Of a stretch of DNA of 64,000 nucleotides, positions 2,285 through 52,964 are shown piece after piece. This DNA is from an uncultured Gammaproteobacteria bacterium. Lineage in GTDB: Bacteria > Patescibacteriota > Patescibacteriia > UBA9934. The stretch is from NCBI GenBank assembly GCA_964569575.1, contig CAZMTL010000001.1:67503-131502 (forward strand), given 5' to 3'. Made by a program: the position numbers and the translations under genes. A model generated the notes under the pieces. The model saw only the letters and a program-made list of their open reading frames with translations. It did not search any database and was not told the DNA's origin. Position 1 is the first letter of the stretch. Each line of letters starts with the position of its first letter.

Positions 2285-4915
2285 CTACTCGTCGAACGTC
2301 ACAACCTGACCTGGAAGAACGGAGGTGGATTTTGGACGTTCTTCTTTTGGCGCGCGCAATTGATCTGGCGCGTGGTCGTTTGGTTGTTTTGGTGTTTGTT
2401 GTACTGGTTGAGATTCGGGAGGCTGAACTTTTGATTTTTGTTGCCATTGCGAAAACGCCTCTTTTTGTTGAGAGTTCGCACGTGCTTGATTTGCTGTCAG
2501 ATGATTATTTTGAGACGGATTTTTGAGTGAATCGAGACTGATGCGTTCTTGCGGCACTTCCGAAGAACCTTCACCTCCCTCGCCTCTGCCTTTTCGACGT
2601 CGGCGTTTACGTTTACGTTTTTTTGTGGATTCGTCACCTGCACTGGCCGACTGTCCGTCGTTTCGCGATTGCGTTGACGCAGGACGCTGTTCGCTATCGG
2701 CTGGCGACTGACCTCCCCTAGCCTCCGGCACTAAAGGCCGGACAAGCTCTCCTTGTGGATCTGAGAAGGAGGGGGAACTCGTTCGATTTTCTTCGCGATC
2801 CGGACGCTCTCTTCTCGTCATCCCGGGCTCCGACCCGGGATCCATCGCTTCTTGCTGCGGTCGCTCGGCGCGATCTACTCGCTCTTCGCGAGGGCGTTCG
2901 CTGCGCTGTTGTGGCACTTCGCGAGACGGTCGTTCGATAGACTCACTTCGCTCCAGCTTTGGAGCCGTTGGATCTGGAACAGGGCTTGATAGCGGTTCGC
3001 GTTGAATTACTTCGCTTCGGCTTTCGGTTTCACCGTCTACCTTCGGCGCCTCTTCCATATGAAGGACTTCAGACGCTTTAAAAGCTGGAAGCGCTGTTGT
3101 TTGTTCAGATGTTATTGTCGGCTCTTTTGCTTCTGGTGCTTTTTTCTCGGACCGAGTTTCGTTGCGTTTTAATGAATCGAGGGAGATGGTTGCCTTTGGT
3201 TGATCTACCACCAACTCACCGTCTGATACTTTTTGTACCGGCGGAAGTTTTGGTTCTGATTTTTTTGGCTCTTCGCGTTTGCGATCGCCTTTGCGGTCAG
3301 ATGACCGCGGCTCGCTTGAACCGCCTCGACCTCCTTTTGGTTTGCTTTTTGATTTCGCTCGTTCTTCCTTTATGATCGGCATGCAGTCGTCGCAATAAAT
3401 TGGACGTGAACGATCGAGTTCAACTGGTAAACCGAATTCTTTGTTACAACGTGTACAGTTGTAATTGTGTTTGTATTTTTCTTTGCGTTTTTCTTTCGCT
3501 TCCTTCAACGCTGAATCGAATTCCTTCTCCATGTCGATGTCATCGCCTCCAAAACCGCTCCATCGCACTACGTGTTCCTCGATTTTTTCTCGAGGAATTG
3601 AATAGCGCTCGCGGGATTGGGTAATCACCTTTTGCTCACTGTCGGTTCGGTGTGCAATTGGCGCGAGCGTTGCGGCAGAAAACGGTTGTGATGTCACACC
3701 GTCGATCATTAGCTTCAGGTAGATGCTGAATTTTGGCAGGTTAATAATGTCTTCCGGCGTAAAGCGAGGCATGAATTCATCTTCCATGAATACGGCGTCG
3801 GGCGAACCTACGCGGAATGAAATGATGGTTCCAACGTTTCCGAACACGGCGTCGCGCACTTCTTCGGTTAACTGAGCGATGTATTGGTGCGCCATGATCA
3901 AATTCAATCGGTACTTTCGGGCTTCGGACAAGATTGAGGCAAATGATTCCACGGCGAAGTTTTGGAATTCGTCTACGTACAAATAAAAATCTGCGCGATC
4001 TGCTTCGGGCGTGTCGACGCGTTCCATGGCGGACATTTGAATTTTTGTAATGATCATTCCACCGAGCAAGCGCGAAGCATCTTCCCCGATTCGTCCTTTT
4101 GACAGGTTGATGATGAGGATTTTTTCTTCATCCATGATTTTACGGATGTTGATAGTGGACTGTGCTTGCGCCACGATGTTTCGAACGATTGATGCAGAAA
4201 GGAACTGTCCTACTTTGTTTTGGATCGGAGCCACGGCTTCGGTTGCGAATTTGTCCTGGTACTGCGCGAATTCTTTTACCCAAAACTGACGGACGATTGG
4301 GTCTTTTACGTTTGAGATGATTTCTTTTCGATAGTCCTTGTCGGAAAGTACGCGGTTGATTCCTAGCAATGTTGAACCTGGGTTGTCGAGCAACGCTAAA
4401 ATTGTGTTGTTTAAGATGTATTCCATTCGAGCAGACCATACGTTTTCCCAGATCTTTTTGAATACACCCATCATTCCGGCGGCGACCAAATGTTTCATTT
4501 CGTCGTCGACCGATTCTAAAATGTTGAACCCGACCGGGTACTGTACATCGGCTGGGTTGAAATACACGACATCGTTTATGCGCCACGACGGGATGTAGTC
4601 GAGTAATTTTTCAGCTGTGTCTCCGTGCGGATCCACATAGCAGGCTCCGTGTCCGGCGTAAATGTCGGAGAGGATCATGTTTTCGAGCAGGGTGGTTTTT
4701 CCCATCCCTGTTTTTCCGATCACATACGTATGACGGCGGCGATCGTCTGTTTTTATGCCGAATTTTCGCATTTGGTTTCGGAAATTGGTTTTTCCGAAGT
4801 AAATGATGTCATTTTCGTGATCGTGTGGGTAGCGCATATTCATAAGGAAATGGATCAGCAATTTGAACGGAAGCGTCTGCGTCGATGTTGTTTCGCGACA
4901 TACGGACGACTTCAC
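2285..4915 (-). CDS. VirD4/TraG/TraD-like type IV coupling-protein-family ATPase with C-terminal zinc ribbon and roughly 350-aa disordered K/R/E/P-rich tail
   Basis: Walker A VIGKTGMGKTT followed by YVDPHGD (TrwB/TraD AAD-binding-type NTPase); CTRCNKEF...YCDDCMP zinc ribbon; tail has KKRKRKRRRRKGRG patch; 33-nt gap to upstream gene. Confidence 0.8.
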   Translation of the reverse strand: MKSSVCRETTSTQTLPFKLLIHFLMNMRYPHDHENDIIYFGKTNFRNQMRKFGIKTDDRRRHTYVIGKTGMGKTTLLENMILSDIYAGHGACYVDPHGDTAEKLLDYIPSWRINDVVYFNPADVQYPVGFNILESVDDEMKHLVAAGMMGVFKKIWENVWSARMEYILNNTILALLDNPGSTLLGINRVLSDKDYRKEIISNVKDPIVRQFWVKEFAQYQDKFATEAVAPIQNKVGQFLSASIVRNIVAQAQSTINIRKIMDEEKILIINLSKGRIGEDASRLLGGMIITKIQMSAMERVDTPEADRADFYLYVDEFQNFAVESFASILSEARKYRLNLIMAHQYIAQLTEEVRDAVFGNVGTIISFRVGSPDAVFMEDEFMPRFTPEDIINLPKFSIYLKLMIDGVTSQPFSAATLAPIAHRTDSEQKVITQSRERYSIPREKIEEHVVRWSGFGGDDIDMEKEFDSALKEAKEKRKEKYKHNYNCTRCNKEFGLPVELDRSRPIYCDDCMPIIKEERAKSKSKPKGGRGGSSEPRSSDRKGDRKREEPKKSEPKLPPVQKVSDGELVVDQPKATISLDSLKRNETRSEKKAPEAKEPTITSEQTTALPAFKASEVLHMEEAPKVDGETESRSEVIQREPLSSPVPDPTAPKLERSESIERPSREVPQQRSERPREERVDRAERPQQEAMDPGSEPGMTRRERPDREENRTSSPSFSDPQGELVRPLVPEARGGQSPADSEQRPASTQSRNDGQSASAGDESTKKRKRKRRRRKGRGEGGEGSSEVPQERISLDSLKNPSQNNHLTANQARANSQQKEAFSQWQQKSKVQPPESQPVQQTPKQPNDHAPDQLRAPKEERPKSTSVLPGQVVTFDE
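2710..2850. repeat. MITE-like composite hairpin repeat, copy 5 (inside CDS tail; core A forward, core B inverted, extra ccggcactaaaggccgg hairpin)
   Basis: ctcgtcatcccgggctccgacccgggatccatcg at 2814-2847 and ctccttgtggatctgagaaggaggggg at 2741-2767; matches copies at 33731, 46955, 24331, 22536. Confidence 0.6.
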
Positions 4916-13971: not shown

Positions 13972-16740
13972 CTAAGCCCCGTGACATTTCTTAAACTTCT
14001 TTCCACTTCCGCAGGGACATGCTTCGTTTCGGCCTACGTTTGAATAGTCCGCGCCTGGCGCTGATTGGGATGGCGCTGAAGCGAGCTTGTTTGTTCGTGC
14101 TGCGACTGGGTTGCCCATTGTTTTTTGGGCACCTTGAAGGGTTAGTTTTGCTTTTTCGATTAAGCTTGGGGCTAGCTGCACCACTTGTTGGGTTGTGATG
14201 GCTTGGCCTAGGACTTTGAAGACGTTGTAGACGACTTCTTTTTGAATCGCAACTTGTAAGTTTTCGAACATTTCGAAGGCTTCGCGCTTGTATTCAATGA
14301 GTGGGTCGCGTTGGCCGTAGCTGCGGAGTCCGACGGAACGGCGTAGGTATGTCATTTCGTCTAGATGCCGAACCCACATGTTGTCGTAGGCGCGTAACAT
14401 TAATGTTCGGTACATCCGATTGAGCCGTTCTTTTTCGGGAAGTTTTTCTTCCGCGAACGCCATTTTTGATTTCGCTTCTGCGACAAACCCTTCGATCACA
14501 AACGAACGTTGCGTTGCAAGACGTTCTTTGTCGCGCGAAATTTCTTTCAATTCTTGCGCGACGTTTGATTCGAATTCTGCGCTGATTGGCGCGATCGTTT
14601 TTAGGACTTCGATAATTTCTTTTGGATCCCAATCTGCTTTTTCTGTCTTGTTTGCAAACTCTTCTGGCACTTCTGCAGCGCTAGAACCTGTGTGGAACAA
14701 CACGACGCGCTCAACTTCTTCTTCAACCATTTCCAAAATCTTTTCTGCGAATCCTTCTTCTTGTTTAAGCAGTTCGCGGCGTTCGGTGTAGATGGCAGTT
14801 CGGTGCTTGTTCAATACGTCGTCGTATTCTAGAACGTGTTTTCGAGAATCGAAATGACGTCCCTCGACGCGTTGCTGTGCTTTTTCGAGCGAGTTCGAAA
14901 TCATCTTACTTTCGATTGGCATTGTTTCTTCAATCTTGAGTGTTTGCATCACTTTCTTTGCACGATCGCTTCCAAAAATGCGCATCAATTGATCGTCCAT
15001 CGAAACGTAAAATTGTGTCGAACCTGGGTCGCCTTGTCGCCCGGCTCGTCCTCGCAACTGGTTGTCGATGCGTCGCGAATCGTGGCGTTCGGTTCCGATT
15101 ACGTGCAATCCGCCTAGCGCCTTTACCGCTTCTTGTTCTTCCTTATCGAACGGCTGACCGCCAAGCATGATGTCGACTCCGCGTCCTGCCATGTTTGTCG
15201 CTACAGTTACTGCCCCGCGTCGACCGGCTTGCGCGATAATTTCTGCTTCGCGTTCGTGGTTTTTTGCGTTCAATACTTCGTGCTTCACACCTCCCTTTGT
15301 CAGAAGTTGCGAAAGAAGTTCGTTGTCTTCAATCGAAATGGTTCCAAGCAACACGGGCTGCCCTTTCTGCTGTCGCATTTTTACTTCTTCTACCACCGAC
15401 AACAACTTCCCTTTTGTGTTTTGATAAATACGATCGTTCAAATCTTCGCGGGCGATTGGATTGTTGGTTGGCATCTGTACTACTTCCAACTTGTAGATTT
15501 TCGAAAATTCTTCTGCTTCGGTTGCCGCTGTTCCGGTCATTCCCGAAAGCTTGTTGTACATGCGGAAATAATTTTGGAAGGTGATCGTTGCCATCGTACG
15601 ACTTTCTCGGTTCACCTGAACTCCTTCCTTCGCTTCGATTGCTTGGTGCAATCCGTCACTGTATCGACGTCCTTCCATCACGCGTCCGGTAAATTCGTCG
15701 ACAATTTTAACTTCCCCATTTTGCACAACGTATTCTTTGTCTTTTTGAAATAACGCTCGCGCTTTGAGTGCTTGTTCAGCGTGGTGAATGTATTCCAATC
15801 CTCCGCTTGTGTAGAGATTTTCTACACCAAGACGTTTTTCGAGTGTCTCGATTCCGGCATCGGTAAACGTTGACGCACGCATTTTCTCGTCGATGTTGTA
15901 GTGCTCGCCTTCTTTCAAATCTCTTACCAATTCCGCGAAACGGAAATAGAGATCAGCTGATTCTTCCGCAGGAGCCGAGATGATGAGCGGCGTGCGGGCT
16001 TCGTCGATTAAGATTGAGTCGATTTCGTCGACAATCGCGTAGTGAAGTTCGCGCTGCACACGGTCTTCTTCGCGCGTTACCATGTTGTCGCGCAAGTAAT
16101 CGAATCCGAATTCGTTGTTTGTTCCGTACGTAATATCTGCCGCGTACGCTTCACGACGACTTACCGGTCGCAAAAAGTCCATCTGAACTTTGAACGAACC
16201 TGTTTGGTCGCGTTCTTCATCTTCTTCCTTCGCTGCTTTGAACGATTCGTCGTAGATGTATCCGCTTTCGTGCTGAATGCAGGCGACGCTTAATCCAAGA
16301 AATGAAAAAATCTGTCCCATCCAAACCGCGTCACGCTTTGCAAGGTAGTCGTTTACTGTTACGACGTGTACGCCTTTTCCTTCGAGCGCGTTTGCGTAGA
16401 CGGCTAGTGTTGAGGTAAGCGTCTTTCCTTCACCTGTTCGCATTTCGGCAATTTGACCTTTGTGTAGAGTGAGCCCTCCCATCAGCTGAACATCGTAGTG
16501 TCGTTGACCAAGCGTGCGACGAGCGGTTTCGCGTACAATCGCGAATGCTTCATGAATCACGCTGTCGAGCGCCGTGCCTTCCTGAACTTGTTTTTTGAGG
16601 TCGAGCGATTTCTGCTTTAATGCTTCGTCCGACAAGCTAGCCAAACCTGGTTCTAGGTTGGTTATTTTTTCTGCTTCGGTTCGTAATTCTTTTAACGTTT
16701 TCTCGTTCGGATCACCGAAAATTTTGGTCAAAAAACTCAT
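13972..16740 (-). CDS. secA: preprotein translocase ATPase SecA (922 aa); track ORF 13972..17196 is an N-terminal read-through into the GC-rich islet
   Basis: True start MSFLTKIFGDPNEK at 16740; DEAD-motor and C-terminal zinc-finger CPCGSGKKFKKCHG. Confidence 0.95.
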   Translation of the reverse strand: MSFLTKIFGDPNEKTLKELRTEAEKITNLEPGLASLSDEALKQKSLDLKKQVQEGTALDSVIHEAFAIVRETARRTLGQRHYDVQLMGGLTLHKGQIAEMRTGEGKTLTSTLAVYANALEGKGVHVVTVNDYLAKRDAVWMGQIFSFLGLSVACIQHESGYIYDESFKAAKEEDEERDQTGSFKVQMDFLRPVSRREAYAADITYGTNNEFGFDYLRDNMVTREEDRVQRELHYAIVDEIDSILIDEARTPLIISAPAEESADLYFRFAELVRDLKEGEHYNIDEKMRASTFTDAGIETLEKRLGVENLYTSGGLEYIHHAEQALKARALFQKDKEYVVQNGEVKIVDEFTGRVMEGRRYSDGLHQAIEAKEGVQVNRESRTMATITFQNYFRMYNKLSGMTGTAATEAEEFSKIYKLEVVQMPTNNPIAREDLNDRIYQNTKGKLLSVVEEVKMRQQKGQPVLLGTISIEDNELLSQLLTKGGVKHEVLNAKNHEREAEIIAQAGRRGAVTVATNMAGRGVDIMLGGQPFDKEEQEAVKALGGLHVIGTERHDSRRIDNQLRGRAGRQGDPGSTQFYVSMDDQLMRIFGSDRAKKVMQTLKIEETMPIESKMISNSLEKAQQRVEGRHFDSRKHVLEYDDVLNKHRTAIYTERRELLKQEEGFAEKILEMVEEEVERVVLFHTGSSAAEVPEEFANKTEKADWDPKEIIEVLKTIAPISAEFESNVAQELKEISRDKERLATQRSFVIEGFVAEAKSKMAFAEEKLPEKERLNRMYRTLMLRAYDNMWVRHLDEMTYLRRSVGLRSYGQRDPLIEYKREAFEMFENLQVAIQKEVVYNVFKVLGQAITTQQVVQLAPSLIEKAKLTLQGAQKTMGNPVAARTNKLASAPSQSAPGADYSNVGRNEACPCGSGKKFKKCHGA

Positions 16741-16817
16741 ACACGCACGATTTTTTTCTGCTGGATTAACGAGGCTATCTTGCCTCAAAAATGAGAAAAG
16801 ATCAATTTTTCCTGTTA

Positions 16818-16856
16818 CCAAAACGCAAAACCCCGCGAACGCGCGTTCGCAGGGTA
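16818..16856 (-). terminator. rho-independent terminator downstream of cupin gene
   Basis: Palindrome ccccgcgaacgcgcgttcgcaggg followed (minus strand) by TTTTGCGTTTT. Confidence 0.6.
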
Positions 16857-16877
16857 AGCCGATGCTGGGCTCGGGTA

Positions 16878-17327
16878 CTAGTTGACGACGAACTTGTCTT
16901 CGGGTCCGCCGCCGCCGATGTTGATCACCGAGGCCCGGAAGGCCTGCGTGTGCAGAACCTCGTGGACTGCATTGGGCGCTACGATCACGATGCCACCCGC
17001 GGGCACGTGGTACGTCTCCCCGTCGATCCAGATGGTCATCGTGCCGTCGAGCACGGTGTAGATCTCGGTGCCGACGCGGTGGTAGTGACGATCCTCCTTC
17101 GCGCCGTGGGTGAACACGGCGACTTCGAAGGGGGTCGCGCCTCCGCCCGTGACGATGACCGGGCATCGCCCGTTCTCGCCGCTGTCGTGGCTCCACACCG
17201 ACTCGGTGGCCTCGCTCTCAGTTCGGGCGAACAAGCCGACCACGGCCAACTTGCGGGCACAGCGGCCACCGTCCATGAAGTTCGGATCCTTGTCGATCGC
17301 AATGGGGAACACAACCAAGGACTTCAT
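16878..17327 (-). CDS. cupin-domain protein (149 aa) in high-GC islet 2
   Basis: GGAGG 5 nt upstream of ATG 17327; two-motif cupin pattern (..HGAKEDRHYHRVGTEIYTVLDG.. / ..YHVPAGGIVIVAPNAVHEV..). Confidence 0.72.
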   Translation of the reverse strand: MKSLVVFPIAIDKDPNFMDGGRCARKLAVVGLFARTESEATESVWSHDSGENGRCPVIVTGGGATPFEVAVFTHGAKEDRHYHRVGTEIYTVLDGTMTIWIDGETYHVPAGGIVIVAPNAVHEVLHTQAFRASVINIGGGGPEDKFVVN

Positions 17328-22362: not shown

Positions 22363-22535
22363 ACCTTTGCATGTTAGCAGATTTTGACCGTTTTTGGCAT
22401 GCACCGTACAATGTTGAGCAATATGTTGTAATTTTATCTATCCTAGACCTTCAGACGCACTCGAGGCGAGAGATTGCCGCCCTTCGCTCGCAATGACCGA
22501 GTTGAGATGCAGCGAAATCGTCTTTCGCCGCGCAA

Positions 22536-22625
22536 CCACCCCTAGCCCCTCCTTGAAAAGGAGGGGAAGCACTGCGAGAATCGATGGATCCCGGATCGGG
22601 TCCGGGATGACGAGAATTCGAGTGC
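22536..22625. repeat. MITE-like composite hairpin repeat, copy 4 (reverse orientation)
   Basis: revcomp = ctcgtcatcccggacccgatccgggatccatcgattctcgcagtgcttcccctccttttcaaggaggggctaggggtgg; creates shadow ORF 22438..22647. Confidence 0.6.
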
Positions 22626-22691
22626 GGGACAACTCGAGTTCGAACAACCTCAGAACTCCAACCCTACTCCCTAACCCCTACTCCCTCCCCT

Positions 22692-23939
22692 ATGATTTTA
22701 CACACTCAAGACCCTGCGATTGCTCGATCGCTTCAGAAAGAATTACAACGACAACGTGAAGGACTCGAAATGATTCCTTCTGAAAATTTTGTGTCGCCGG
22801 CAGTGCTCGAGGCACTTGGTTCAGTTGCTACAAACAAGTACGCAGAAGGATATCCTGGAAAACGCTACTATGGCGGATGTGAATTTATCGATGAAATTGA
22901 ACAGCTGGCGATCGACCGCGCGAAGGAATTATTTGGCGCCGAACATGTAAACGTTCAGCCTCATTCTGGAGCACCGGCCAACATTGCTGTGTATGCGGCG
23001 CTGTTGAAGCCGGGTGACACGGTTCTTGGTATGGATTTGTCGCACGGTGGTCACTTAACGCACGGGCATCCAGTGACTGAATCGGCGAAGATGTATAACT
23101 TTATTCGGTATAAAACAAATGCTGAAGGCTTGCTTGATTTGGAAAATTTGCGCGCGATGGCGATTGAACATAAACCGAAGATGATTTTGGTTGGCTACTC
23201 TGCTTATTCGCGCGAGATTGATTTTGCGCGTGTGAAAGAAATTGCCGACGAAGTGGGTGCGATCACCATGGCAGATATTGCACACATTGCTGGATTGATT
23301 GCGGCTGGTGAAATGAATAATCCTGTTCCGTTATTTGACGTCGTAACTACAACAACGCATAAAACATTGCGCGGACCGCGTGGTGGAATGATTATGTGCA
23401 AAGCCGTCCACGCGAAAGCGATCGATAAAGCGGTGTTCCCTGGGTTGCAAGGTGGTCCACACGAAAACGGTATTACGGCAAAGGCGGTGGCGTTTAAAGA
23501 AGCGCTCGACCCGTCGTTTAAAGAATATGCTCGTCAAACTAAGGCAAACGCCAAGGTACTCGAGCGCGTGTTGCGCGATACGGGATTCACCCTTGTGTTT
23601 GGTGGGACCGATAATCACCTTTTATTGATAGACGTTACAAGCAAGGGCGTGACCGGAAAAGAAGCCGAGGAGGCGCTCGACAAAGCAGGCATTACCGTAA
23701 ACAAAAACATGATACCCGACGACACACGTTCGCCGTTTGATCCTTCGGGCATTCGACTTGGAACACCAGCACTTACCACTCGTGGAATGAAAGAAGTAGA
23801 AATGGAACAGATTGGCGCATGGATCGCGGAGGCGATCGTGAGTCACAAGGATGAAGGGGCGCTTGCGCGGATTCGGGAAGAGGTGAAAAAGATGACGGCA
23901 GAGTTTCCGCTTTATGGCGGGGTTTCGTACGCCGAATAG
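22692..23939 (+). CDS. glyA: serine hydroxymethyltransferase
   Basis: Full-length SHMT: ..[11 protein letters not shown].., PLP-lysine region [14 protein letters not shown]. Confidence 0.95.
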
Positions 23940-24330
23940 TTAGAATTAATATTCGTGTGATTTCGAGGCGGCGTTGCCGCTTCGATTTTGTTACAGCGAG
24001 ACTTTGTCACAGCGCCTGGGAGTTTCACCCCCAGACCCCGACCCCCTTTTCTTTGCTAGCTCAAAGTAAAGGGGGGAAAAGAAAGAGCCTTTCCTGGCTC
24101 GGCGGCACGAACATTTATTTTTAGATTATGGAAAGTGACCGATCGCAGTTCTTTTCGCTACACCGGTCCTACGGGGGTCAGGCCCCCTCCAGCCGGTCTG
24201 AAAGAACTGCTCGTCCTTCGCTGATTTTGTTACAGTGATTTAGTTACACGTTTTCTTTGTCGCAGCGTGTTGAGCTCCGCTGGCGTTCGGCTTCGCCTCT
24301 CTTCGTGTTAGGGCATGACTGCACCTCGTC

Positions 24331-24435
24331 CTCGTCATCCCGGACTTGATCCGGGATCCATCGATTCTCGCATGCGCTTCCCCTCCTTCTCGGATCCGCA
24401 AGGAGGGGTGGTTTCGCGCGGATCGAATGCGAACA
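24331..24435. repeat. MITE-like composite hairpin repeat, copy 3
   Basis: ctcgtcatcccggacttgatccgggatccatcgattctcgcatgcgcttcccctccttctcggatccgcaaggaggggtggtttcgcgcggatcgaatgcgaac. Confidence 0.6.
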
Positions 24436-24482
24436 TTTGATCGTTCACCACAAAAGTCATCACAGATTGTGATGACTTTTGT

Positions 24483-27400
24483 TTATTGACCGGCTGAGGT
24501 GAATGGTGCGCTGGTTTTGTAGAGTTGGAGGAGGGTTGGTGGTAAATCTATTACTCGATCGCTCCAGTTTTGTCCGAAGAGGATTGCGGCGGTTTGTTCG
24601 TTTGGAATAGCTCGGATGTAGTTGATGCCTTGCGACAGGATTGGTGCGTAGACGGTTGGGTCGCTTTGGATTTTTACAAGAGAGTTTGCCGGGTTTGGAA
24701 GCACCGGATCGCCCAGCCTGTAGAACGGCAACGTCGCGTCACTCACTACCAATACGTCATCAAAGTCTTGATGCCACGTGAAGTAGATCGCTTGGTTCAT
24801 GAATGGTTTTCGCGTTCCGTTTTCGAGGGCGTAGACCGTTGAGTACGTCGTTCCTTTTACCAATAGCGCGTTGTCTGGAACGCATGTTACTTGTTCTAGT
24901 TCACCGGTTTGCGGCGAAGGAGCAAAGACTTCTTCGGTACAGGCGTCAGGAACAGGTTCGGTTGGTTCGACTGGTTCTTGCGGTTCTTCTACATTTTCGC
25001 AGTCAATCAAAATGTCGGATACGTCTACCGAAGTCGTGAGGGTGTTTGTCGAATTTCCACCCGCCGTTCGCAAGCGTAAGTAGAATGTTTCTACTTCCTG
25101 ATCTGCGACAAATTCAATCGGAGCAATCATGATTTGTTTTTCTGCTGTGCTAACGGTTTCGTCAATCACATACGCCTGCCATTGTGCGCCGACAAAGTAG
25201 GCGTTATCGCTCACCACTACTTGCGCCGCGTTCTTTGCTTGGATGTAGATGTTTGCTTGCGCGACTTCACCGCGACACAGTTGAGGTTCACTCACTTGAA
25301 CATCGATATTTACATTTTCGACCACGATAATCGGCCCCGAATCTCCACCGCCACCTCCGCCGCCGCTTGGCGTGTCGTTGTCGGTGTTCGACAGCGTGAC
25401 ATCGTTTGGATCGATTACGTCGTACAAAGCGTCGGATGTTAACCCGGCATTTATCACTACTTCGATTGTGTACACAACATCCCCGTCTACCGTTCCGTCA
25501 TCTTGTCCGGTAACTGTCACCGTTTGCGGAGTACTCCAGTTAAGTGGAGTGAATGTAAGCGTCGCTCCGCCTGTTACCAATCCTTCTGTTGCGTCGTCGG
25601 ATGCGGAGTTGATTACAACGTCACCCGTTGGTTCGGTGTCGAGCACAACGGTGAATGTTGTGATGCCACCGGCTTCGGTTGTGTTTCCTGATACTGCCGA
25701 AACAGTTACGCCTGCTGTGTCGTTGTCGATATTTTGTAACGACACTTCTTCGCTTGCGACTACGTCATAAACGGTGTCGAGTGTCGCGCCTGCGTTTACC
25801 GAAACATCAATCGCATATGCACTATCGCCGTCGTCGATGTCGTCGTTCTGACCTGTTACCGTGACTGTTTGCGGTTGATTCCAGTTGAGTGCGTCGAAGT
25901 TAAGGGTCGCGCCAGATGTCACCACTCCTTCCGAACTGTCGTTGCTCACATTTTCTATCGTGACACTGGCCGTAGGTTCGGTCTGCAATTGAACCGTGTA
26001 CGTTGCCGTGATTCCGGCCTCGGTCGTGTTATTTGAAATTGCGGAGACAATCAATCCTGCCGTGTCGTCGTCTTCATTCGTAACAGCAACCTGCTGATCT
26101 GGCAAAGCTTCGTATTCGAGGTCGTCGGATGTTGCATCGTCTACCGAAACGGTGACCGTGTACGCGACATCGCCGTCGTCTACGTCATCATCTTGTCCGG
26201 TGACGGTGACGGTTTGTGGCGTATCCCAATTGATCGACGTGAACGTAAGCGTCGCTCCGTCAGTAACTGTCCCTTCTGCGCTGTCCGATGCTGAATTAAT
26301 TACAACGTCACCAGTTGGTTCGGTTGTAAGGACGATTGTAAATGTGGCCGTAGCGCCCGCTTCGGTGGTGTTGTTCGAGATCGGTGACGTGACGAATGAT
26401 GACGAATCATTGTCTACGTTCGAAAGCGCTACGTCGGACGGGTCAATCGCGTCGTAAAGTGGGTCGAGTGTTTCTACCGTATCTGTAGTGATTAAAATAG
26501 TGTATGCAACCAGTCCGTCTGCGAGCGCATCGTCTTGTCCTGTCACGGTCACAGTTTGTGGCGTATTCCAGTTTCCTGCGTTGAATGTAAGCGTTGATCC
26601 GCTTGTCACGACTCCTTCCGATGCATTGCTCGAAACAGAATCGATCACCACATCTCCCGTTGGTTCGCTGTTGAGTCGAATGGTGAACGTTGCTGTTCCG
26701 CCATCTTCCGTGGTGTTCCCGGAGGCAGCGGAGACGGTAAACCCAACCGTGTCGTTGTCGGTGTTTTGGGCGTTTACTTGTTGCGCGGGAAGAATATCGT
26801 AGAGCGCATCTTGCGTGTCGGGTGCGTCGACTTCGACGTCTATCACATACGCCACGTTTCCGTCGTCGATGTCATCGTTTTGTCCGGTCACAATTACTGT
26901 TTGCGGGTCATTCCAATCAGCCGGAGTGAAGGTAAGCATCACGCCGGTCGTCACGACTCCTTCGGACATATCGCCGCTCACCGAATTGATCACCACATCC
27001 CCTGTCGGCTCGCTGTCGAGCACAACGGTGAATGCCGCTACTCCACCGGCTTCCGTCGTGTTGCTCGAAATAGCCGAAAGGGTGAACCCGGCTGTGTCGT
27101 CGTCTTCGTTTGTTCCTTCGACCTGTTCGTCAATCGCGCCAATGTATTCAATCGCGTCTGTGAGCGCTTCGTTTATAGTGACGTCGATTGTGTAGTCGAT
27201 ATTTCCGTCATCCACGTCGTCATCCACTCCCGCGATCGTGACGGTTTGTGGCGTGCTCCAGTTTGAAGCATCGAACACACGACTCGCGCCCGATACAATG
27301 ATTGCTTCGGTCGTGTCACTCGAAATTGAATTAATGACCACGTCACCGGTTGGCTCACTTTCCAAAACAACAGTAAATGTTGCCGTTGTTCCCGCTTCGG

Positions 27401-30400
27401 TTGTGTTGTTAGAAATGGCCGAAACGCCAAAGCCAGCGGCGTCACCATCGTCTTCGTTTACAACTTCTACTTGCTGATTTGGTACGTTGCCGTATCCAGT
27501 TGCCGTTGTCAGTAGATCGTCAACCTCTACTTCGATTGTATAGTTCACGTTACCGTCATCTATTGTATCGTTCACTCCCGTCACAGTGACCGTTTGCGGA
27601 ACCGTCCAGTTTTGATCGTCGAATGTGAGCGTTCCACCGCTAGTTACCAATCCTTCTGTCGAATCGTTCGATATTGAATCAATCACCACGTCCCCTTCCG
27701 GTTCGCTGTCGAGCACAACGGTAAATGTAGCCGTTGCGCCAGCTTCGGTGGTGTTGTTCGAGATGGCAGAAACGGTGACTCCGAGTGTATCGCCGTCGTC
27801 TTCGTTTACAACCGTTACATCGTCTGGATCAATGACTGCGTATTCAACATCGGTTGTATCGTTTTGATCGAGTGTGACAATGATCACGTACTGCACGTCT
27901 TCGTCATCGAGAAAGTCGTCTTGACCTGTTACCGTTACCGTTTGTGGCGTATCCCAGTTACCTGAATTGAATGTAAGCACCGATCCGCCCGTGACGATTC
28001 CTTCTGTTTCGTCGTCGGATTCCGAATTTACCACTACCACTCCGACCGGCTCACTTTGAAGCACAACCGTGAACGTGGCTGTTGCTCCGGCTTCGGTGGT
28101 GTTGTTCGAGATGGCGGAAACCGTAATTCCACCGGCGTCGTTGTCGATGTTTGTGACCACTGCGTCGTCTGGATTAATCGCGTCGTAAAGCGCGTCGTTG
28201 GTCGCGTCTTGGTCCGTGGTCATGATGATGGAATATTCAATATCACCATCCGCAATATCGTCATCTTGTCCGGTGACGGTTGTAAATTGCGGCGTGTTCC
28301 AGTTTTCGGTGGTGAATGTGAGTGTTGCGCCGGCTGTCACAACTCCCTCTGTTGCGTCGTTCGATGCTGCTTCGATCACCACGTTTCCAGTTGGCTCGGT
28401 GTTTAGTACAACCGAAATTGTTGCCGTTCCACCCGACTCTGTTGTGGTACCCGAAACTGCCGAAACACTTACGCCCGCCGTATCATTGTCGATATTTGTT
28501 ACCGCAACATCGTCTGGATTAATCGCATCGTAATTGTCGTCTTCCGTGAGAGCTGCGTCGACAGTGGTGGTGATGGAATAAAGAATGTCTCCGTCGTCCA
28601 AGTTGTCGTTCTGCCCAGTGACTGTTATGGTTTGAGCGATGTTCCACGTTCCTGTTTCAAATGTAAGCACCGATCCACTTGTCACAACTCCTTCTGTCGA
28701 GTCGCCCGAAACCGAATTGATCACAACCGTGTCCGTTGGCTGTGATGTAAGATTTACGGTAAACGTCGCCGTCGCTCCGGCTTCGGTAGTGTTATTCGAA
28801 ATTGCTGAAACATTTACACCAACCGCATCGCCGTCGTCGATGTTTTGCAATGATCGATCGAGCGGATTCGCATTGTCGTAATTGTTGTCGGTGGTCGCTG
28901 CCGTGTCCATCGAAGTCACAATCGAATAAGCAATGTCTCCGTCCGCGATGTCGTCGTCTTGTCCCGTAACTGTGACTGTTTGTGGCGTATCCCAGTTTGA
29001 TGAATCGAAGAGAAGACTTGCGCCGCTTGTCACAACTCCTTCCGTTGCGTCATTCGATGCAGAAAGTACAACAACATCTCCTACCGGTTCTGTTGTAAGC
29101 ACGACAGTGAACGTGGCCGTTCCTCCGGCTTCGGTCGTATCTCCTGATATAGCAGAAACCGTCACACCGCGCGTGTCGTTGTCGGTGTTTTGTGCATTCA
29201 CTGTTTGATCGGCCAACACGTCATAATCACCATCGTCTGTTAATGCGTCGTCGATCGAAACTTGAATCGTGTACGCGATATTTCCATCGTCGATATCGTC
29301 GTCTTGACCTGTTACTGTCACCGTTTGCGGCACATTCCATTCACTCGGAATGAACGTAAGCGTGCCTCCGCCAGTTACTACTCCTTCTGTTGCATCGTTA
29401 GAAACTGAATTGATTACTACATCACCTATCGGTTCGGATGTTAGTTCTACCGTAAATGTAGCCGTCCCTCCGGCTTCGGTTGTGTTATTCGAAATAAGCG
29501 ATACGCTAAATCCTGGCGCGTCGCCGTCGTCTTCGTTTGTGACCGAAACGTCGTTTGGATTTACCGAATCGTATCCGTTGTCGGTTGTTGCTACCGTGTC
29601 TGTTGCGACAACAATTGTGTAGGCAACGTTTCCGTCTCCAAGTCCGTCATCTTGTCCGGTAACCGTGACTGTTTGTGGCGTGTCCCACGTTGCAGAATTG
29701 AATGTCAGACTCGCTCCGCTTGTCACAACTCCTTCTGTTGTGTCGTTTGATGCGGAGGTGATCACCACATCGCCCTCAGGTTCAGAATTGAGTACGACGG
29801 TGAATGTTGCTGTTCCACCTGCTTCGGTAGTGTTTCCGGAGATTGCCGAAACCGTCACACCACGCGTGTCGTTGTCTTGGACGGTGACAGAAACGTCATC
29901 GATTTCGATTCCGTTGTAGTTTGGATCATCTGAAGTGACTGTATGCTCGATAACTACTATCTCATTCGTTTCATCAATATCATCATTCACCGCACTCACC
30001 GTCACTGTTTGTGGTGTATTCCAGTTTAGATCCGTGAAGGTGACAGGATCGATGTCGGTGGTAATTTCGCCAGAATAAGAAAGATCAACCACTACATCGT
30101 CGGTCGGCTGCATGGTCAGCACCAGCGTGTACGAATCCGTCGTACCGTTTTCGTGCACCTGCGTGTTTATGCCCGAAATCGTGACCACTACATCCACAAT
30201 GTCGTTGTCGATGTTGGTAATAGTGACATCGTCCGGATCGGTTGCGTCGTACAGCGGATCGACTGTCGCGCCTTGGTTGATCGACACCACAACATCATAA
30301 AGAACATCTCCATCGATTAGTGCGTCGTCCTGACCAGTCACCGTTACCGTTTGTGGAATATTCCAGTTTTCGGTCGTGAAGGTGCGTGTTGCTCCTGCAG

Positions 30401-33400
30401 TTACCAATCCTTCTGTTGCGTCATTTGATGTCGACGTTACCACTACGTTGCCGGATGGCTGAGATGTGAGCACGAGTGAAAATGTTGCTGTTGCCCCGTC
30501 TTCGGTGGTGTTGTTCGAAATATCAGACACGAATACGCTCGATACATCATTGTCGATGTTCGTAATTTCGACATTGTCTGGATCTCCTCCCCCGAACACT
30601 GGATCATCCGACACAACGGTGCCGGTAACAATTTGGTATACAATATCGCCGTCGTCGATGTCATCATTTATTCCTGTAACGGTAATTTCTTGAGGAATAT
30701 TCCAGTTTAGATCGGTAAACACCACTTCCGTTTCTACAATCGTTCCTTCGGTTGTATCCGAGGAACTGATCGCGACTGTTACATCGTCGGTTGGTTGATT
30801 CGTTAACTCCATCGTGAAGGTTGCTGTCGCGCCGTCTTCGGTGGTGTTGTTCGAAATTTCGGAAACGAATACCCCTGGGAATGTCCATCCGTCATTATTG
30901 CCCGAATCAGTACAACCAACTTGGCAGAAAATATCTGTTCCTCGAACATTGGCGTTATCTTTCAAATCTAAATACTCAACCGTTACCGCTCCTTCTGGGT
31001 CGAGTGATGATTGTACGCCGTCGGTGGTTGATCGCACAAATAATTTTTCGTCGGCGATTCCGGTGAAATCAAAATCGTTTTGAATCGTTTGAGTTTGCCC
31101 AGCTTCAAGCGTAATCGTGTCTTCGGTTGTGACGTTTTTTGCAAGATTGTAGAACGTTGTGGAACCGAAAATAGTCTGCGAGGTACCGTTGAATGTCACC
31201 AGTCCGTTCCGTGGAGTGAATGTAGACGCATTTGTCCAGTCCCCCGCAACGGTGATTGGATAGTTCGACGCACTTACGTCCAACTCTCCTTCGAGGATCG
31301 AAAGGTCGCCATTTACGTCGAGCGCTTCGCCAAGCACAAACACATCGCCAGCATCTGCGCTTGCGATTTCAAAATTTGCATACGTATCTAGGAAATTTGT
31401 GATTGTATATGTATCACTACTTGCATCAGCGTCGCCGGTAAACCGTACAGTGCTTCCAGTTTGCAAATCTGGCTGCCCAGAATTAAATGTGCCGACTTCA
31501 TTTCCGTATAATTCGACCACTCCCCCGTCTTCAACCTGAAACGTTCCGTTGGTTCCGTTCACCGTTACATTAAATCCCGACAAATCCAACACACCTTCTT
31601 GCACAAGAAAATCTTGATTGAATCCGTCGAGCACAAGCGCAGACTGAAGCTGGACAGATCCGCCAGTTTTTTGAATGTATAAATCGGTGTTATGCCCCCC
31701 TGTTGCTCCTGTTAAATCGAATGTTTGAACGGCACCGCCGGTAAAACTTAGGACAGCACCAAAGCTAGTGTTGCTTGTGTAACCACTATTGATCGTGACA
31801 TTTCCACGCGCCTCGATTATCCCGTTGTTCACACCAATATCTCCAAGAACTAGTTCTTCATTTACAATAATCGTATCGTTTGAAATAGAAATTGCCGCGG
31901 AACCAAGCGTCTGTCGATCCACGGTAAGATTGGTGAATTCTTGTGTACCGTCGACGTCCCACGTTCCTGCCGATCGGTATGCGATCACATGCTCGGGGGG
32001 TAAAAATGTTCCGTTTGTTGTCACCGTCAAATCTCCCAATAACCATTCGCTCTGCGTTGACGCATCATAAGTTCCACCGACCTGAATCCATTCAAGTACT
32101 CCTGGGATAAAGTCACTAGGGTTATTAAATGGAATGTTTCCAGAAAATCCTGCCGTTGTGCGAAGATTAACCGTTGCAACCGCGTTCAAATTAATGTCGT
32201 CATCGGCATCTGGAGCTGAATCGAGGATAATCACCGGAGTTGTTCCTCCGTTAATTTCATATGTTTGCACGACCGATTCGTTTGTAAAGTAAATATTTGC
32301 AGACCCACCGGTAAACGAAGCTGATTGCGTAATATTTCCTTCCACTAAGACCGTTCCGTCGTTTAGCCCAACATCAACTAGCGCAAGATTACCATTGACC
32401 ACTATTGTGTCTCCCGAAAATGTTGCCGATGCTGCTCCTAGGTTACTTCGATCAATTGTGACGTCATTGAATTCCTGACTTCCATCTACATCCCAAACAC
32501 CTCCGCTGCGCCAAGAAATCGCATGTTGCGGAGCAATAAATGTTCCTGCCGTACTCAGAATAAATCTTCCCAGCAACCACTCTGTTTGAGCTGACGCATC
32601 ATACGTTCCTCCGACCTGCGTCCAGGTTTCGACTGTTACCTGATAATCCCCAGAATTGTTTAACGGAATTGCACCGCTAAATCCGGCCGTCGTTTCGATC
32701 GATACTCCCCCGTCATTTAGCATCAAGATTTCATCCGATGCATCTGCTACTGAATCTAGTACGATAATCGGCGAAAATCCTCCGTTTACTTCGTACAACT
32801 GATCGACGGCATCATTTGCAAAATACATCATTGCGTCGCCTGAATCGTATGTACTTGCTTGCTCGATGTCGCTATACGCATATAGCGAGCCGTCTTGCGC
32901 TGTTCCATTTGTTAGCGTGAGTTGGCCATACACGTGGATGATATCACCAGAACTTATGTTTAAATTTTGAGCATTTCCTTTATTAATCTCGAGATTAAAA
33001 ACATCAATCGAATTCACTACATCAAAACTCGATACCGTATTTCCATCAAACACGATACTTCCGTTATTATGAAAAAAACTTCCACCCGACTGAATAAAGT
33101 TACGAAATACCATGAACGAATCCTGCGTAGACGTAAACGTACCCCCTGTTTGAGTAAAGTTTTGATTGACATCAATCATTGCATTCCCGCCAATAAAACT
33201 TCCGCTCGCGATACTAAAGTTCGATGCCCCAACCGTTACCGATGACCCTGCTCCTTGAGTGATCGTTCCAGAATATCCACTTGCGATTTCGATACCGGCA
33301 ACAGAAATAGAAGCATCGATTGTTGCATCTTTTGTTGACGTTGCGTTGAACAGAGCAATGTCGCCCGTTCCTGGAATTGTGTCACTGCTCCAGTTCGCAG

Positions 33401-33561: not shown

Positions 33562-33589
33562 ATTTTATCATTTTTTGACTCATTCCCAA
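33562..33589 (-). promoter_or_regulatory. candidate promoter for adhesin gene (TTGGGA-16-TAAAAT), near-leaderless
   Basis: Hexamers on minus strand ending about 10 nt before ATG 33551; no SD. Confidence 0.35.
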
Positions 33590-33730
33590 AATAAAAACGG
33601 GGATAGTTTCTTGGCTTATGTTGCGTGAAATTTTGATTTTGTGTGAAGGGATTTTTTGAAGAGGTTTGTTTGAGGTTTTTGGAGGGGAGAAGAAGGGTTG
33701 AAGGTTCGCTTCACTTCACCATAACCCACC

Positions 33731-33846
33731 CTTCCTCTCGTCATCCCGGGCCCCGACCCGGGATCCATCGCCTTTTTCGTCACACGCGAAAACGCAAACG
33801 CGTTTCCCTTCCTTCTCAGGTCTACAAGGAGGGGTTAGGGGAGGTT
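33731..33846. repeat. MITE-like composite hairpin repeat, copy 1 (reference copy)
   Basis: core A ctcgtcatcccgggccccgacccgggatccatcg (33737-33770), spacer, core B cccttccttctcaggtctacaaggagggg (33806-33834), ttaggggaggtt. Confidence 0.65.
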
Positions 33847-33883
33847 ACGTGCTCCTCGAATACGTTTTAACAAAATAAAGAAG

Positions 33884-33905
33884 GTCAACGTTTCACGGTT
33901 GACCC
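33884..33905 (-). terminator. terminator after pentapeptide gene A
   Basis: ggtcaacgtttcacggttgacc hairpin followed on minus strand by T-rich tract. Confidence 0.5.
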
Positions 33906-33929
33906 TCGCGGGTGCTGTGGAGTTGTACG

Positions 33930-41115: not shown

Positions 41116-41142
41116 AGCTTAGGGTGTAGTAAAGAATTGCTT

Positions 41143-41195
41143 TGACATCCTGAGCGCGGCGAATGGATCCTTCACTTCGTTCAGGATGTCAACGT
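41143..41195. repeat. 12-bp stem hairpin with 29-nt loop; probable degenerate relic of the composite repeat family
   Basis: ttgacatcctga ... tcaggatgtcaa; loop gcgcggcgaatggatccttcacttcgt resembles cgatggatcc of core A. Confidence 0.35.
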
Positions 41196-46889: not shown

Positions 46890-46954
46890 GCAGGCGTCAT
46901 CCTGGACTTGATTCGAGATAGATCGACTCTTACTTCTTTAGCTTGTACCGATTC

Positions 46955-47095
46955 CTCTCCTCTCGTCATCCCGGGCCCCGACCCCCGGCACTAAAGGCCG
47001 GGCGGGCTGGGATCCATCGCCTTCCTTGCTTCAAGCGAAAGTCAGAACGCGCTCCCCCTCCTTCTCAGATCCACAAGGAGGGGCTAGGGGTGGTT
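46955..47095. repeat. MITE-like composite hairpin repeat, copy 2 (carries nested ccggcactaaaggccgg hairpin inside core A)
   Basis: ctcgtcatcccgggccccgaccc[ccggcactaaaggccgggcgggct]gggatccatcg ... ccccctccttctcagatccacaaggaggggctaggggtggtt. Confidence 0.65.
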
Positions 47096-47121
47096 TTGCG
47101 CTGATCGACCAAAAATCTCTG

Positions 47122-47160
47122 AAATAAAAACCGTCGCAGTTTGTACTGCGACGTTTTTTT
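47122..47160 (-). terminator. rho-independent terminator (bidirectional) after 47160..47849 gene
   Basis: A-run, stem cgtcgcagt/actgcgacg with loop ttgt, T7. Confidence 0.65.
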
Positions 47161-47849
47161 TAATTTTCTACTTGCCATTCTACACTCTCGATATACACGC
47201 CCTGCTCTGTTGTTTTCATAAAGTAGACCGTATCACCTTCCACGTCTACAGATACTCCCGCGTCGTACACTTGAACGTATTGCGTGTGATCGGTCGGGAT
47301 ATTGGCCGTTGCTAGTAATTCTGCTTCATTATTTAGCGCGTATACATGCGTGACTATTTTTGTTGCTCCCGAAGCACTTATTTCGTCAACTTTATTTACC
47401 TGCCAATACTGGATGCCTTCAGACGATTCTCCCCAAAAATATAATTCGGAAGAATCCTCTGTTTGTAGTTTGTTTTTTACTTTTAGTTGGTCGCTTGTAA
47501 GCTCGGGATTTTTTGAAGAATTCGCCTTCGGTGACTGTCCGTACTCATATTCTTCATATCGGATAAAATCACCTGCTTTGTTTACGATAATCTCTCTACC
47601 TTTAACACCGTCGTTGATCCGCACTTCGTTCCCCTTAACTGAAAATGCGTTCGGTCCCCAGCGCAGCGACTCTTCTTCTCCACCCTCGTAATGCACGCCT
47701 TCTTCTGCATCGGTTGCTACAGGGATGAATATATTCACCTTATTACTATTCAGCATTTGATCACTCTTCACTATTCGCAAAGCGAGCACGACCATTATTA
47801 AAATAGACACAAAGCTTACAAGCCAGATTAGCTTTCTTGATTTGTTCAT
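47160..47849 (-). CDS. hypothetical membrane-anchored protein (229 aa)
   Basis: N-terminal TM LIWLVSFVSILIMVVLAL; extracytoplasmic remainder; terminator downstream. Confidence 0.65.
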   Translation of the reverse strand: MNKSRKLIWLVSFVSILIMVVLALRIVKSDQMLNSNKVNIFIPVATDAEEGVHYEGGEEESLRWGPNAFSVKGNEVRINDGVKGREIIVNKAGDFIRYEEYEYGQSPKANSSKNPELTSDQLKVKNKLQTEDSSELYFWGESSEGIQYWQVNKVDEISASGATKIVTHVYALNNEAELLATANIPTDHTQYVQVYDAGVSVDVEGDTVYFMKTTEQGVYIESVEWQVEN

Positions 47850-50395: not shown

Positions 50396-50551
50396 ATGTC
50401 TCAAGATAACATGATTAAGCTAGAGTGTACGGCTTGCAAAACCGATAACTACCGCTCTCGCAAGAACAAAAAGATCCACAAAGATCGACTTGAAATCAAC
50501 AAATTCTGCAAATCTTGCGGAAAGCACGTTGGTCACAAGGAAACAAAATAA
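50396..50551 (+). CDS. rpmG: 50S ribosomal protein L33
   Basis: MSQDNMIKLECTACKTDNYRSRKNKKIHKDRLEINKFCKSCGKHVGHKETK matches the L33 CxxC..CxxC pattern; followed by terminator. Confidence 0.85.
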   Translation: MSQDNMIKLECTACKTDNYRSRKNKKIHKDRLEINKFCKSCGKHVGHKETK

Positions 50552-50577
50552 CGCCACTCGGCGTTATTTTGTTTTAG
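50552..50577 (+). terminator. rho-independent terminator of rpmG
   Basis: aacgcc-actc-ggcgtt followed by ATTTTGTTTT; same hairpin as 52754-52769 in opposite orientation. Confidence 0.6.
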
Positions 50578-52737: not shown

Positions 52738-52751
52738 GAGTATAAACGAGT

Positions 52752-52775
52752 AAAACGCCGAGTGGCGTTTTTTCG
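52752..52775 (+). terminator. rho-independent terminator of LCP gene
   Basis: aacgcc-gagt-ggcgtt + TTTTTTCG. Confidence 0.6.
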
Positions 52776-52805
52776 TTTTTGAAGTGATGGTTGCACGAAC
52801 CAACT

Positions 52806-52895
52806 CGTTCTCGTCATCTTTTCGGCGAGAATCGAACGCACTTCTCCTCCCTTTCAGGGAGGGCGAGAGGTGATTGCGCGTCGATCGAATGCAAA
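52806..52895. repeat. degenerate copy of composite hairpin repeat family
   Basis: ctcgtcatc...cctccctttcagggaggg...gattgcgcgtcgatcgaatgcaaat parallels the 3' part of copy 3 (ggtttcgcgcggatcgaatgcgaac). Confidence 0.4.
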
Positions 52896-52964
52896 TATAA
52901 TGAAACCTGCGTCGCCTACACCCCCCCCTCTGCTCCCGCAACGAAACGCTGTTGCCGCAGATAA

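Follow-up and report, generated by a model that had tools for sequence, protein, structure and literature searches.

Composite hairpin repeats in a 64-kb stretch of Uhrbacteria-like DNA and the association of one of their modules with DUF559 genes

Repeat copies in the window

The 64-kb stretch of contig CAZMTL010000001.1 analyzed in this study (hereafter the window; ~48% GC) harbors a family of composite hairpin repeats of ~100-160 nt, in which a hairpin A is followed by a spacer, a second hairpin B, a tail and a trailing segment. Five composite copies, one copy without A and one degenerate extra A hairpin were found in the window. The DNA is best assigned to an Uhrbacteria-like bacterium of the Candidate Phyla Radiation (CPR; Patescibacteria), since two of its proteins have close homologues in this group and its gene order matches that of Uhrbacteria-like contigs. 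The serine hydroxymethyltransferase encoded by glyA (22692-23939, plus strand) shares 80-84% identity with proteins of Candidatus Uhrbacteria / Patescibacteria, and the homology search with a VirD4/TrwB-like protein points likewise to this group. The order SecA ... MurB - Mur ligase - glyA is common to the window and contigs L105-L109 (L numbers denote loci and contigs retrieved for comparison). The repeats and their settings are as follows.

Copy 1, 33728..33867, plus strand: A 33737-33770 (plus strand; CGTC tag, 8-bp stem ATCCCGGG, 6-nt loop, CCA tail); spacer 33771-33805; B hairpin 33806-33834; tail TTAGGGGAGGTT 33835-33846; trailing segment to about 33867; located between the minus-strand terminator 33880-33907 and the promoter-like site 33562-33589 of a giant gene.
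Copy 2, 46952..47116, plus strand: A 46962-47019 with 1 mismatch and a 24-nt mini-hairpin insert in the loop (46985-47008); spacer 47020-47054; B 47055-47083; tail and trailing segment 47084-47108; located between the bidirectional terminator 47132-47153 and the promoter-like site 46872-46900.
Degenerate extra A, 46895..46928, plus strand: GGCGTC ATCCTGGA cttga TTCGAGAT AGATCG; nhmmer E=0.0014; 34 nt upstream of copy 2 and in the same orientation.
Copy 3, 24322..24436, plus strand: A 24331-24363; spacer 24364-24379; B 24380-24408; truncated tail and trailing segment 24409-24433; located between the convergent glyA (plus strand) and giant open reading frame (ORF; minus strand).
Copy 4 (the locus flagged originally), 22506..22623, minus strand: A 22582-22614; spacer 22567-22581; short-loop B 22546-22566; tail and trailing segment 22521-22545; located in the divergent promoter region between the Mur ligase gene (minus strand) and glyA (plus strand).
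Copy 5, 2703..2852: on the minus strand tail 2710-2723, mini-hairpin insert 2724-2746 and B 2747-2775; on the plus strand A 2814-2847, inverted relative to B; located within the coding sequence of the VirD4/TrwB-like protein (ORF 2285..4915, minus strand).
Copy 6, 52804..52898, plus strand: no A hairpin; A remnant CTCGTTCTCGTCATC 52804-52818, then spacer; B variant CTCCTCCC-ttt-CAGGGAGG 52844-52862 with compensated stem changes; tail and trailing segment 52863-52895; located 30 nt downstream of terminator 52752-52775.

That these sequences form a dispersed, modular hairpin repeat family, as claimed in the original prediction, was borne out by motif counts and profile searches. In the window, CTCGTCATCCCGG has 5 exact matches and CCGGGATCCATCG has 4, together with 1 carrying a single mismatch. 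With up to 2 mismatches allowed, the totals for the two motifs are 7 and 8 compared with ~1.3 expected, and the observed counts exceeded those of all 100 shuffles. Profile searches with nhmmer retrieved the same loci at E-values of 1e-10 to 1e-14 for A and of 4e-13 to 9e-23 for B with its flanks. Copies 1 and 2 align over 100 nt at 76% across spacer, B, tail and trailing segment, and copies 3 and 4 over 42 nt at 95% across A and spacer. Since the spacers, too, are alike between copies, the similarity is not limited to the GGAGG/CCTCC runs but also includes the trailing segments. The latter carry a conserved GCGCnGATCGAATGCRAA 3' of the tail, which had been omitted from the predicted consensus and makes the composite longer than assumed.

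The predicted observation was largely upheld. All five composites stand, as does the predicted relic at 52806-52895, which has lost the A hairpin and yet keeps CTCGTCATC, spacer, B variant, tail and trailing segment (copy 6). The degenerate A at 46895-46928 was added. A second predicted relic at 41143-41195 was rejected as a family member, because it is a separate palindrome (TTGACATCCTGA..TCAGGATGTCAA) that is matched by neither the A nor the B profile. This palindrome (41142-41192; 22-nt arms TTGACATCCTGAGCG..CGTTCAGGATGTCAA) adjoins a terminator and resembles TGTC-type hairpins of some metagenome loci (ATCCTGAA stems in L139 and L178).

The modules differ in their arrangement between copies. 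Pairing of the spacer with the trailing segment encloses B in a short outer GC palindrome in copies 3 and 4. In copy 5 the element order deviates from the predicted one by the inversion of A relative to B. The nested mini-hairpin CCGGCACTAAAGGCCGG, predicted for copies 2 and 5, indeed occurs exactly twice in the window (0.06 expected); the 24-nt insert lies in the A loop of copy 2 and between tail and B of copy 5, and the 17-nt mini-hairpin is absent from all 235 fetched loci. Of the 7 elements, 3 show signs of decay: the loop is interrupted in one, the hairpin is lost in another and an arm is degenerate in the third. With respect to the inferred direction of replication, one strand carries 5 of the 6 A hairpins, a sample too small to interpret. 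Folding as single-stranded DNA (ssDNA) gave z-scores of -2.6 to -3.1 for 5 of the 6 copies. RNAalifold found only a 5-bp outer GC helix in the five B-containing segments, which are too few sequences for covariation. Rfam models recognized no rRNA, tRNA or any other family in the window; nothing reached the gathering score there or in 9 related loci, and at E<=1 only chance-level matches were obtained.

Two copies are read as protein. ORF 22438..22647 (minus strand, 69 aa, ...PLLFKEGLGVV), suspected from the outset to be the translated repeat, proved to be just that for copy 4 when the ORF was read through. Likewise, the predicted location of copy 5 within a coding sequence was verified: its 141 nt are in frame in ORF 2285..4915 and add 47 residues to a disordered C-terminal linker of the VirD4/TrwB-like protein. 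The NCBI call of this protein (P0241, 828 aa) takes in copy 5, and the homologue median is 681 aa. In the homologues, the landmarks ..ISLxSL.., KRKRKRRRRK and PGxxVxFD flank a hypervariable low-complexity linker, which is the insert site. Two homologues, P0261 (PLLAKEGQGEV) and P0289 (PLLSKEGQ), carry the motif PLLxKEGQ in this linker. Both represent independent insertions of B-type hairpins that keep the frame. Hence, a class of spurious ORFs with VIPxxxxDPSI and PLLxKEGLGxV peptides can be explained, which aids annotation, and the odd 47-residue insert of the VirD4-like protein is accounted for as a repeat copy.

Relatives of the two modules in other genomes

CGTC-tagged repetitive extragenic palindromic (REP) elements consist of an unpaired CGTC (or TGTC/CCTC), an 8-9-bp stem with A-T at the first two positions, a 4-5-nt loop and a CCA tail. 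They mostly form head-to-head dimers, have some intragenic copies and lack a dedicated transposase (PMC3733652). In the window, each of the five A stems has CGTC immediately on its 5' side and CCA on its 3' side. The stems (ATCCCGGA/TCCGGGAT or ATCCCGGG/CCCGGGAT) are of 8 bp and begin with A-T. Copies 1 and 5 have loops of 6 nt and copies 3 and 4 loops of 5 nt, and the 24-nt insert widens the gap between the 7-bp stem arms of copy 2 to 42 nt. The Neisseria form of this hairpin, NTS (CGTCATTCCCGCGMAVGCGGGAATCYRG), is a substrate of the 94-aa GIY-YIG protein SsnA, which binds and cuts it exclusively as ssDNA; the cut falls next to the palindrome, and ssn genes (GIY-YIG cd10448) are typically bracketed by their own motif in the arrangement NTS-ssnA-NTS (PMC11893778). 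The published pattern of the Ssn-related motif (SRM), HGTCWYN(0-2)YYVSBRHN(0-5)WNVSBRGN(0-2)RNCYNB (PMC11893778), has 4 matches in the window; over 100 dinucleotide shuffles, the matches averaged 0.16 and peaked at 2. Copy 2 misses the pattern because of its insert. By these sequence features, module A can be identified as a CGTC-tagged REP and an Ssn-related motif (NTS/SRM), and in this respect it is already known.

A scan for the exact A pattern, limited to one genome per species and with the window's own genome not in the result, returned 104 loci in Alpha-, Beta- and Gammaproteobacteria, Actinomycetota, Bacteroidota and Patescibacteria. The hosts include Bosea, Sphingopyxis, Sphingomonas, Nocardia, a Bacteroidota metagenome-assembled genome (MAG) and a Patescibacteria MAG. 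The A hairpin of copy 3 agrees with Sphingopyxis copies at every position over 33-34 nt including the loop (100% identity), and its 33-mer is also identical in L101 and further genera. Since the A hairpin is identical to that of Sphingopyxis, the composite may have been acquired horizontally. In 66 of the 104 loci, A is followed by an inverted partner hairpin (median distance 21 nt). The partner has the stem ATCCCGG, ACCCCGG, ATTCCGG, ATGCCGG or ATACCGG and a 3' arm that always matches, which indicates that the stem is maintained by compensatory change.

At L101:1936-2374, in a Pseudomonadota MAG, a GIY-YIG ORF (PF01541, E=7e-13) is bracketed by the copy-3 33-mer and its inverted partner. The Ssn probe used in our searches was validated on this locus (E=1e-29). 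Inspection of the ORFs adjoining A in the low-GC loci L005, L013, L032, L056, L064, L087 and L088 revealed no nuclease-like candidate. Five phyla are listed for CGTC-tagged REPs, with CPR not among them (PMC3733652). A literature search on Patescibacteria turned up no study of extragenic palindromic repeats, and an Ssn-type hairpin in a CPR bacterium appears to be unreported.

Module B together with the tail follows the scheme CCCCTCCTT-loop-AAGGAGGGG-YTA-GGGGWGG. The B-type motif, defined in this analysis and unpublished, was taken as CCCCTCC(TT)-loop-(AA)GGAGGGG followed by YTA/TTG and the G-rich heptamer GGGGWGG. It is complete in copies 1, 2, 4 and 5; copy 3 lacks YTAGGGG, and copy 6 has a compensated variant. 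Two of the Uhrbacteria-like contigs, L108 and L109, contain a ~77-nt element, GACCCCTCCCAACCTCCCCTTAGTAAGGGGAGGAGCACGCGTTTTCCCCTCCTTACCAAGGAGGGGCTAGGGGAGGTC, whose right half including the preceding ACGCGTTTT is homologous to B and tail of the window; the L108 element is of the B type, with two hairpins and no A. Scanning metagenomes for AAGGAGGGGYTAGGGGWGGT yielded at least 120 loci on contigs of 24 to 66% GC. Module B is abundant, yet, as far as the literature search goes, apparently undescribed.

B-type elements bracket small DUF559 (Vsr-like, PD-(D/E)XK) endonuclease genes in other genomes. At L108:5588-6100, a DUF559 gene (PF04480/PF18741) lies exactly between two B-type element copies. 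With the L108 protein as a probe, a DUF559 ORF was detected in 9 of 120 B-selected loci, counted among the matches listed, versus 0 of 104 A-selected loci (Fisher p=0.004). Most of these ORFs are located within about 100 nt of the B match, with the gene abutting the element. The last codons and the stop of the gene are the reverse complement of the tail (..ACCTCCCC-TAG/TAA-CCCCTCCTT..AAGGAGGGG), and the element on this side often contains the stop codon or comes right behind it. In the B-selected loci, the ATG is preceded by a hairpin and then TTR and GGAGGGG, so that the G-rich tail occupies the position of a ribosome-binding site. DUF559 loci with bracketing B-type elements are L108, L129, L121, L140, L151, L180, L131 and L145 as well as L230 and L233-L238.

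The association was also seen in the reciprocal direction. Among loci fetched by the DUF559 protein, which derive from Patescibacteria, Anabaena, Bacteroidota, Vibrio and two others, all 6 carry a hairpin with G-rich tail 15-35 nt 5' of the start, and 5 of the 6 have the inverted element at or just past the stop. Furthermore, C-termini produced by read-through into the hairpin (..TPP, ..HLP, ..PPLxKGG..) were found in 45 of 120 DUF559 homologues, compared with 0 of 120 and 1 of 120 in two control families. DUF559 is related to the solved 'endonuclease-like protein' 3HRL (E=2e-19). No paper linking DUF559 to repeats was found among the titles and abstracts of papers that mention DUF559. In the window, ORF 47160-47849 was considered as a DUF559 candidate because of a weak blastx likeness (E about 0.02) and was rejected; it has no Pfam match and looks like a membrane-anchored, secreted protein.

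This association is the most interesting outcome of the locus. DUF559 is a large endonuclease family without known function, and with this link a substrate can be proposed for it and put directly to the test; a further source of sequence-specific nucleases may also open up. We tentatively suggest that B-type hairpins, including CCCCCC variants, might be the cognate recognition or homing sites of DUF559 endonucleases. They would then represent a third phylum-spanning system of a small nuclease plus solo hairpin repeats, beside RAYT-REP and Ssn-NTS, and the composite would fuse the targets of two such systems.

Nature of the composite repeats

The family as a whole is not novel but belongs to the REP-type mosaic elements, which corrects the original description on this point: A fits the published CGTC-tagged REP and SRM patterns and has identical copies elsewhere, and B with its tail is abundant in metagenomes. 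In our view, the repeats are probably a non-autonomous, selfish mosaic of palindromic modules that acts at the DNA level. The repeat would be non-coding and, if active at all, act as DNA rather than as an RNA gene. The composite can be described as one Ssn-type A hairpin, a conserved spacer and one DUF559-type element end (B) in a GC palindrome, with the 24-nt mini-hairpin also present in some copies. The conservation of the spacer between copies suggests that the composite multiplied as a unit in the Uhrbacteria-like lineage, and the modules appear separable, since A flips in copy 5 and A and B each occur alone elsewhere. As no nuclease gene was found in the 64 kb, the copies would be non-autonomous passengers or relics. 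They would be recognized by an Ssn or DUF559 enzyme whose gene lies in another part of the genome or has since been lost. Instead of classical transposition, recombination initiated by a nuclease or mediated by the repeats may account for their spread, in analogy to NTS-ssnA-NTS and REP-RAYT. Copies presumably persist where harm is small: gaps between terminator and promoter, a divergent promoter region and, in frame, the disordered linker of a protein.

Several points weigh against this reading. In the window, neither a DUF559 ORF nor, with the Ssn probe, an Ssn-like ORF was detected, and the closest relatives L105-L109 contain no SRM, which bears on the origin of A in this lineage. None of the five A copies in the window has a head-to-head partner, compared with 66 of the 104 loci elsewhere, although head-to-head dimers are a tendency of the CGTC-tagged REP family and not a strict criterion. 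The A loops measure 5-6 nt, compared with 4-5 nt in the published definition; the paper on these REPs notes exceptions in loop length (PMC3733652). The link between DUF559 and the element is an association, which might reflect no more than an insertion preference of the gene for such hairpins. If so, the finding would shrink to an ordinary mosaic of selfish repeats. The element ends are putative and the mobility is presumed, and an RNA-level side effect of the repeats may exist.

Other explanations have to be weighed against the selfish mosaic. A functional host system, in which the A hairpins would be working Ssn targets for cutting incoming or displaced ssDNA and the composites would be kept by selection, seems unlikely to us, although it has some attraction. 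CPR bacteria are episymbionts depending on DNA uptake, which would suit such a role. In Neisseria, NTS-bearing transforming ssDNA is restricted by Ssn, and symbionts are enriched for SRM-rich genomes (PMC11893778). Moreover, the SRM pattern is matched 25-fold above chance in the window, and glyA is bracketed by copies 4 and 3 in inverted orientation. However, this idea is difficult to reconcile with the missing ssn gene in the 64 kb and the missing SRM in the close relatives examined, and the interrupted loop, the lost hairpin and the degenerate copy look like decay and not like maintenance. A role at the RNA level, as a 3'-UTR (untranslated region) stabilizer or terminator, as a switch sequestering the Shine-Dalgarno (SD) sequence or as a small RNA gene, we regard as improbable. 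It could draw on the stable hairpins, on the CCUCC/GGAGG arms of B, on a promoter-like match at 22553-22581 within copy 4 and on the argument of Di Nocera et al. 2013 that many REPs are transcribed (PMC3733652). The count of promoter-like matches is at chance level, though (3 versus 2.1 expected), and no Rfam family was matched. The sequence does show the predicted anti-SD/SD pairing of the B arms, but no start codon is closer than 65 nt to the element or closer than 125 nt to any GGAGG. Furthermore, the hairpins lack a T-tract, one copy is coding, and copies 1, 2 and 6 are located past canonical terminators and ahead of the next promoter. The copies thus stand outside transcription units bounded by terminator and promoter, or within a tolerant linker, and their orientation towards neighboring genes is inconsistent. 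Setting, orientation, absent T-tracts, distance to start codons and the missing RNA family together indicate that the copies behave as DNA-level passengers.

The original prediction had termed the family MITE-like. A classical miniature inverted-repeat transposable element (MITE) would be an internally deleted insertion sequence that is mobilized in trans via terminal inverted repeats by a DDE or other transposase and makes target-site duplications. The size of 100-160 nt, the several dispersed and mostly intergenic copies and the strong secondary structure would agree with this, but we consider it quite improbable and the label was not supported. There is no inverted-repeat relationship between the left end CTCGTCATCC... 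and the right end ...GGTTnnGCGCnGATCGAATGC: one end is a CGTC hairpin, the other a G-rich tail with GCGC..ATCGAATGC, and inverted repeats are internal to each module. By inspection of the flanks, no direct repeat of shared length surrounds the copies. That neither terminal inverted repeats nor target duplications were seen argues against a classical MITE. In addition, A flips independently of B, the modules are found separately in other genomes, and no transposase was recognized among the 14 window ORFs run against Pfam, which do not amount to a full screen. Finally, the copies might owe their likeness merely to chance or to low-complexity GGAGG/CCTCC runs, given that B is biased in purines and pyrimidines and that other C-rich tracts occur in the window (22662-22692). 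This can be practically dismissed in view of profile E-values down to 1e-23, of the conserved spacers and trailing segments, and of shuffles that never attained the observed counts.

Genomic setting and comparison with known systems

As predicted, intergenic copies adjoin terminators (33880-33907, 47132-47153 and 52752-52775). The terminator hairpins 50541-50576 and 52743-52778 share the stem GCCACTCGGCG/CGCCGAGTGGCG in inverted orientation (36 nt at 81%) and may form a small repeated terminator family. Copies 4 and 3 flank glyA with the CGTC tags towards the gene, a polarity opposite to that of the SRM-ssn-SRM arrangement of L101. Because glyA is syntenic with the relatives, it does not look like cargo. 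The C-rich direct-repeat tract at 22662-22692, CCCTACTCCCTAACCCCTACTCCCTCCCCTA, lies directly 5' of the glyA start codon. In the 390-nt non-coding stretch from the glyA terminator to copy 3, further debris of the B family is present at 24026-24076 and 24173-24194 (a CCCCC..GGGGGG hairpin and the GCCCCCTCCAGCC motif), along with a direct repeat, GATTTTGTTACAG, at 23984 and 24223.

The giant ORF at 24483-33551 (minus strand, 3022 aa) contains ~16 tandem units of 345 nt (115 aa) with 60-77% identity and has no Pfam match; it probably encodes a repetitive surface protein. The SecA ORF at 13972-17196 (minus strand) comprises 1074 aa versus 914-923 aa in relatives, and its SecA domains start at residue 157. 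Its start was probably placed too far upstream by mechanical ORF calling. Between 34001 and 36000, GC rises to as much as 0.555 versus ~0.48 for the window, and ORFs overlap on both strands, one of them with a weak pentapeptide-repeat match.

Among known systems, module A is closest to the CGTC-tagged REPs (Di Nocera, De Gregorio & Rocco 2013, BMC Genomics 14:522), which include Neisseria dRS3 and Rickettsia RPE-4/RPE-6. It shares with them the tag, the 8-bp AT-first stem, the short loop and CCA, and the copies are likewise dispersed and mostly extragenic, with an occasional in-frame intragenic one, no flanking transposase and occasional palindrome partners. In contrast to their head-to-head dimers with 4-5-nt loops, the window copies are singletons with 5-6-nt loops, each joined to an unrelated second hairpin, and the five published phyla do not include Patescibacteria, the host phylum of the window. 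Module A also fits the search pattern of the NTS/SRM hairpins of the GIY-YIG nuclease Ssn (Nat Commun 2025;16:2388), and L101 shows the NTS-ssnA-NTS arrangement with the identical 33-mer. The window differs in having no ssn gene in 64 kb, and a cognate enzyme that would cut its A hairpins or act in transformation is hypothetical.

Bacterial interspersed mosaic elements (BIMEs) of enterobacteria and the mosaic arrays of Neisseria (dRS3, Correia and others) similarly combine a REP hairpin with other motifs in intergenic regions, often near terminators. Their partner motifs differ from those in the window, where no alternation of Y and Z REPs and no IHF or gyrase sites are known and where the composite has a fixed spacer and apparently multiplied as one unit. 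Rickettsia palindromic elements resemble copy 5 with its 47 residues as in-frame palindromic insertions in a protein gene; the window differs in host, in the composite structure and in the single intragenic copy. The partners of REP-RAYT (REPtron) and IS200/IS605 elements are HUH Y1 transposases, whereas those of A and B would be GIY-YIG and PD-(D/E)XK Vsr-like DUF559 proteins, with mobility presumed by analogy. Common to these elements and the DUF559/B-type pair is a small nuclease gene bracketed by hairpins that are also present as solo copies.

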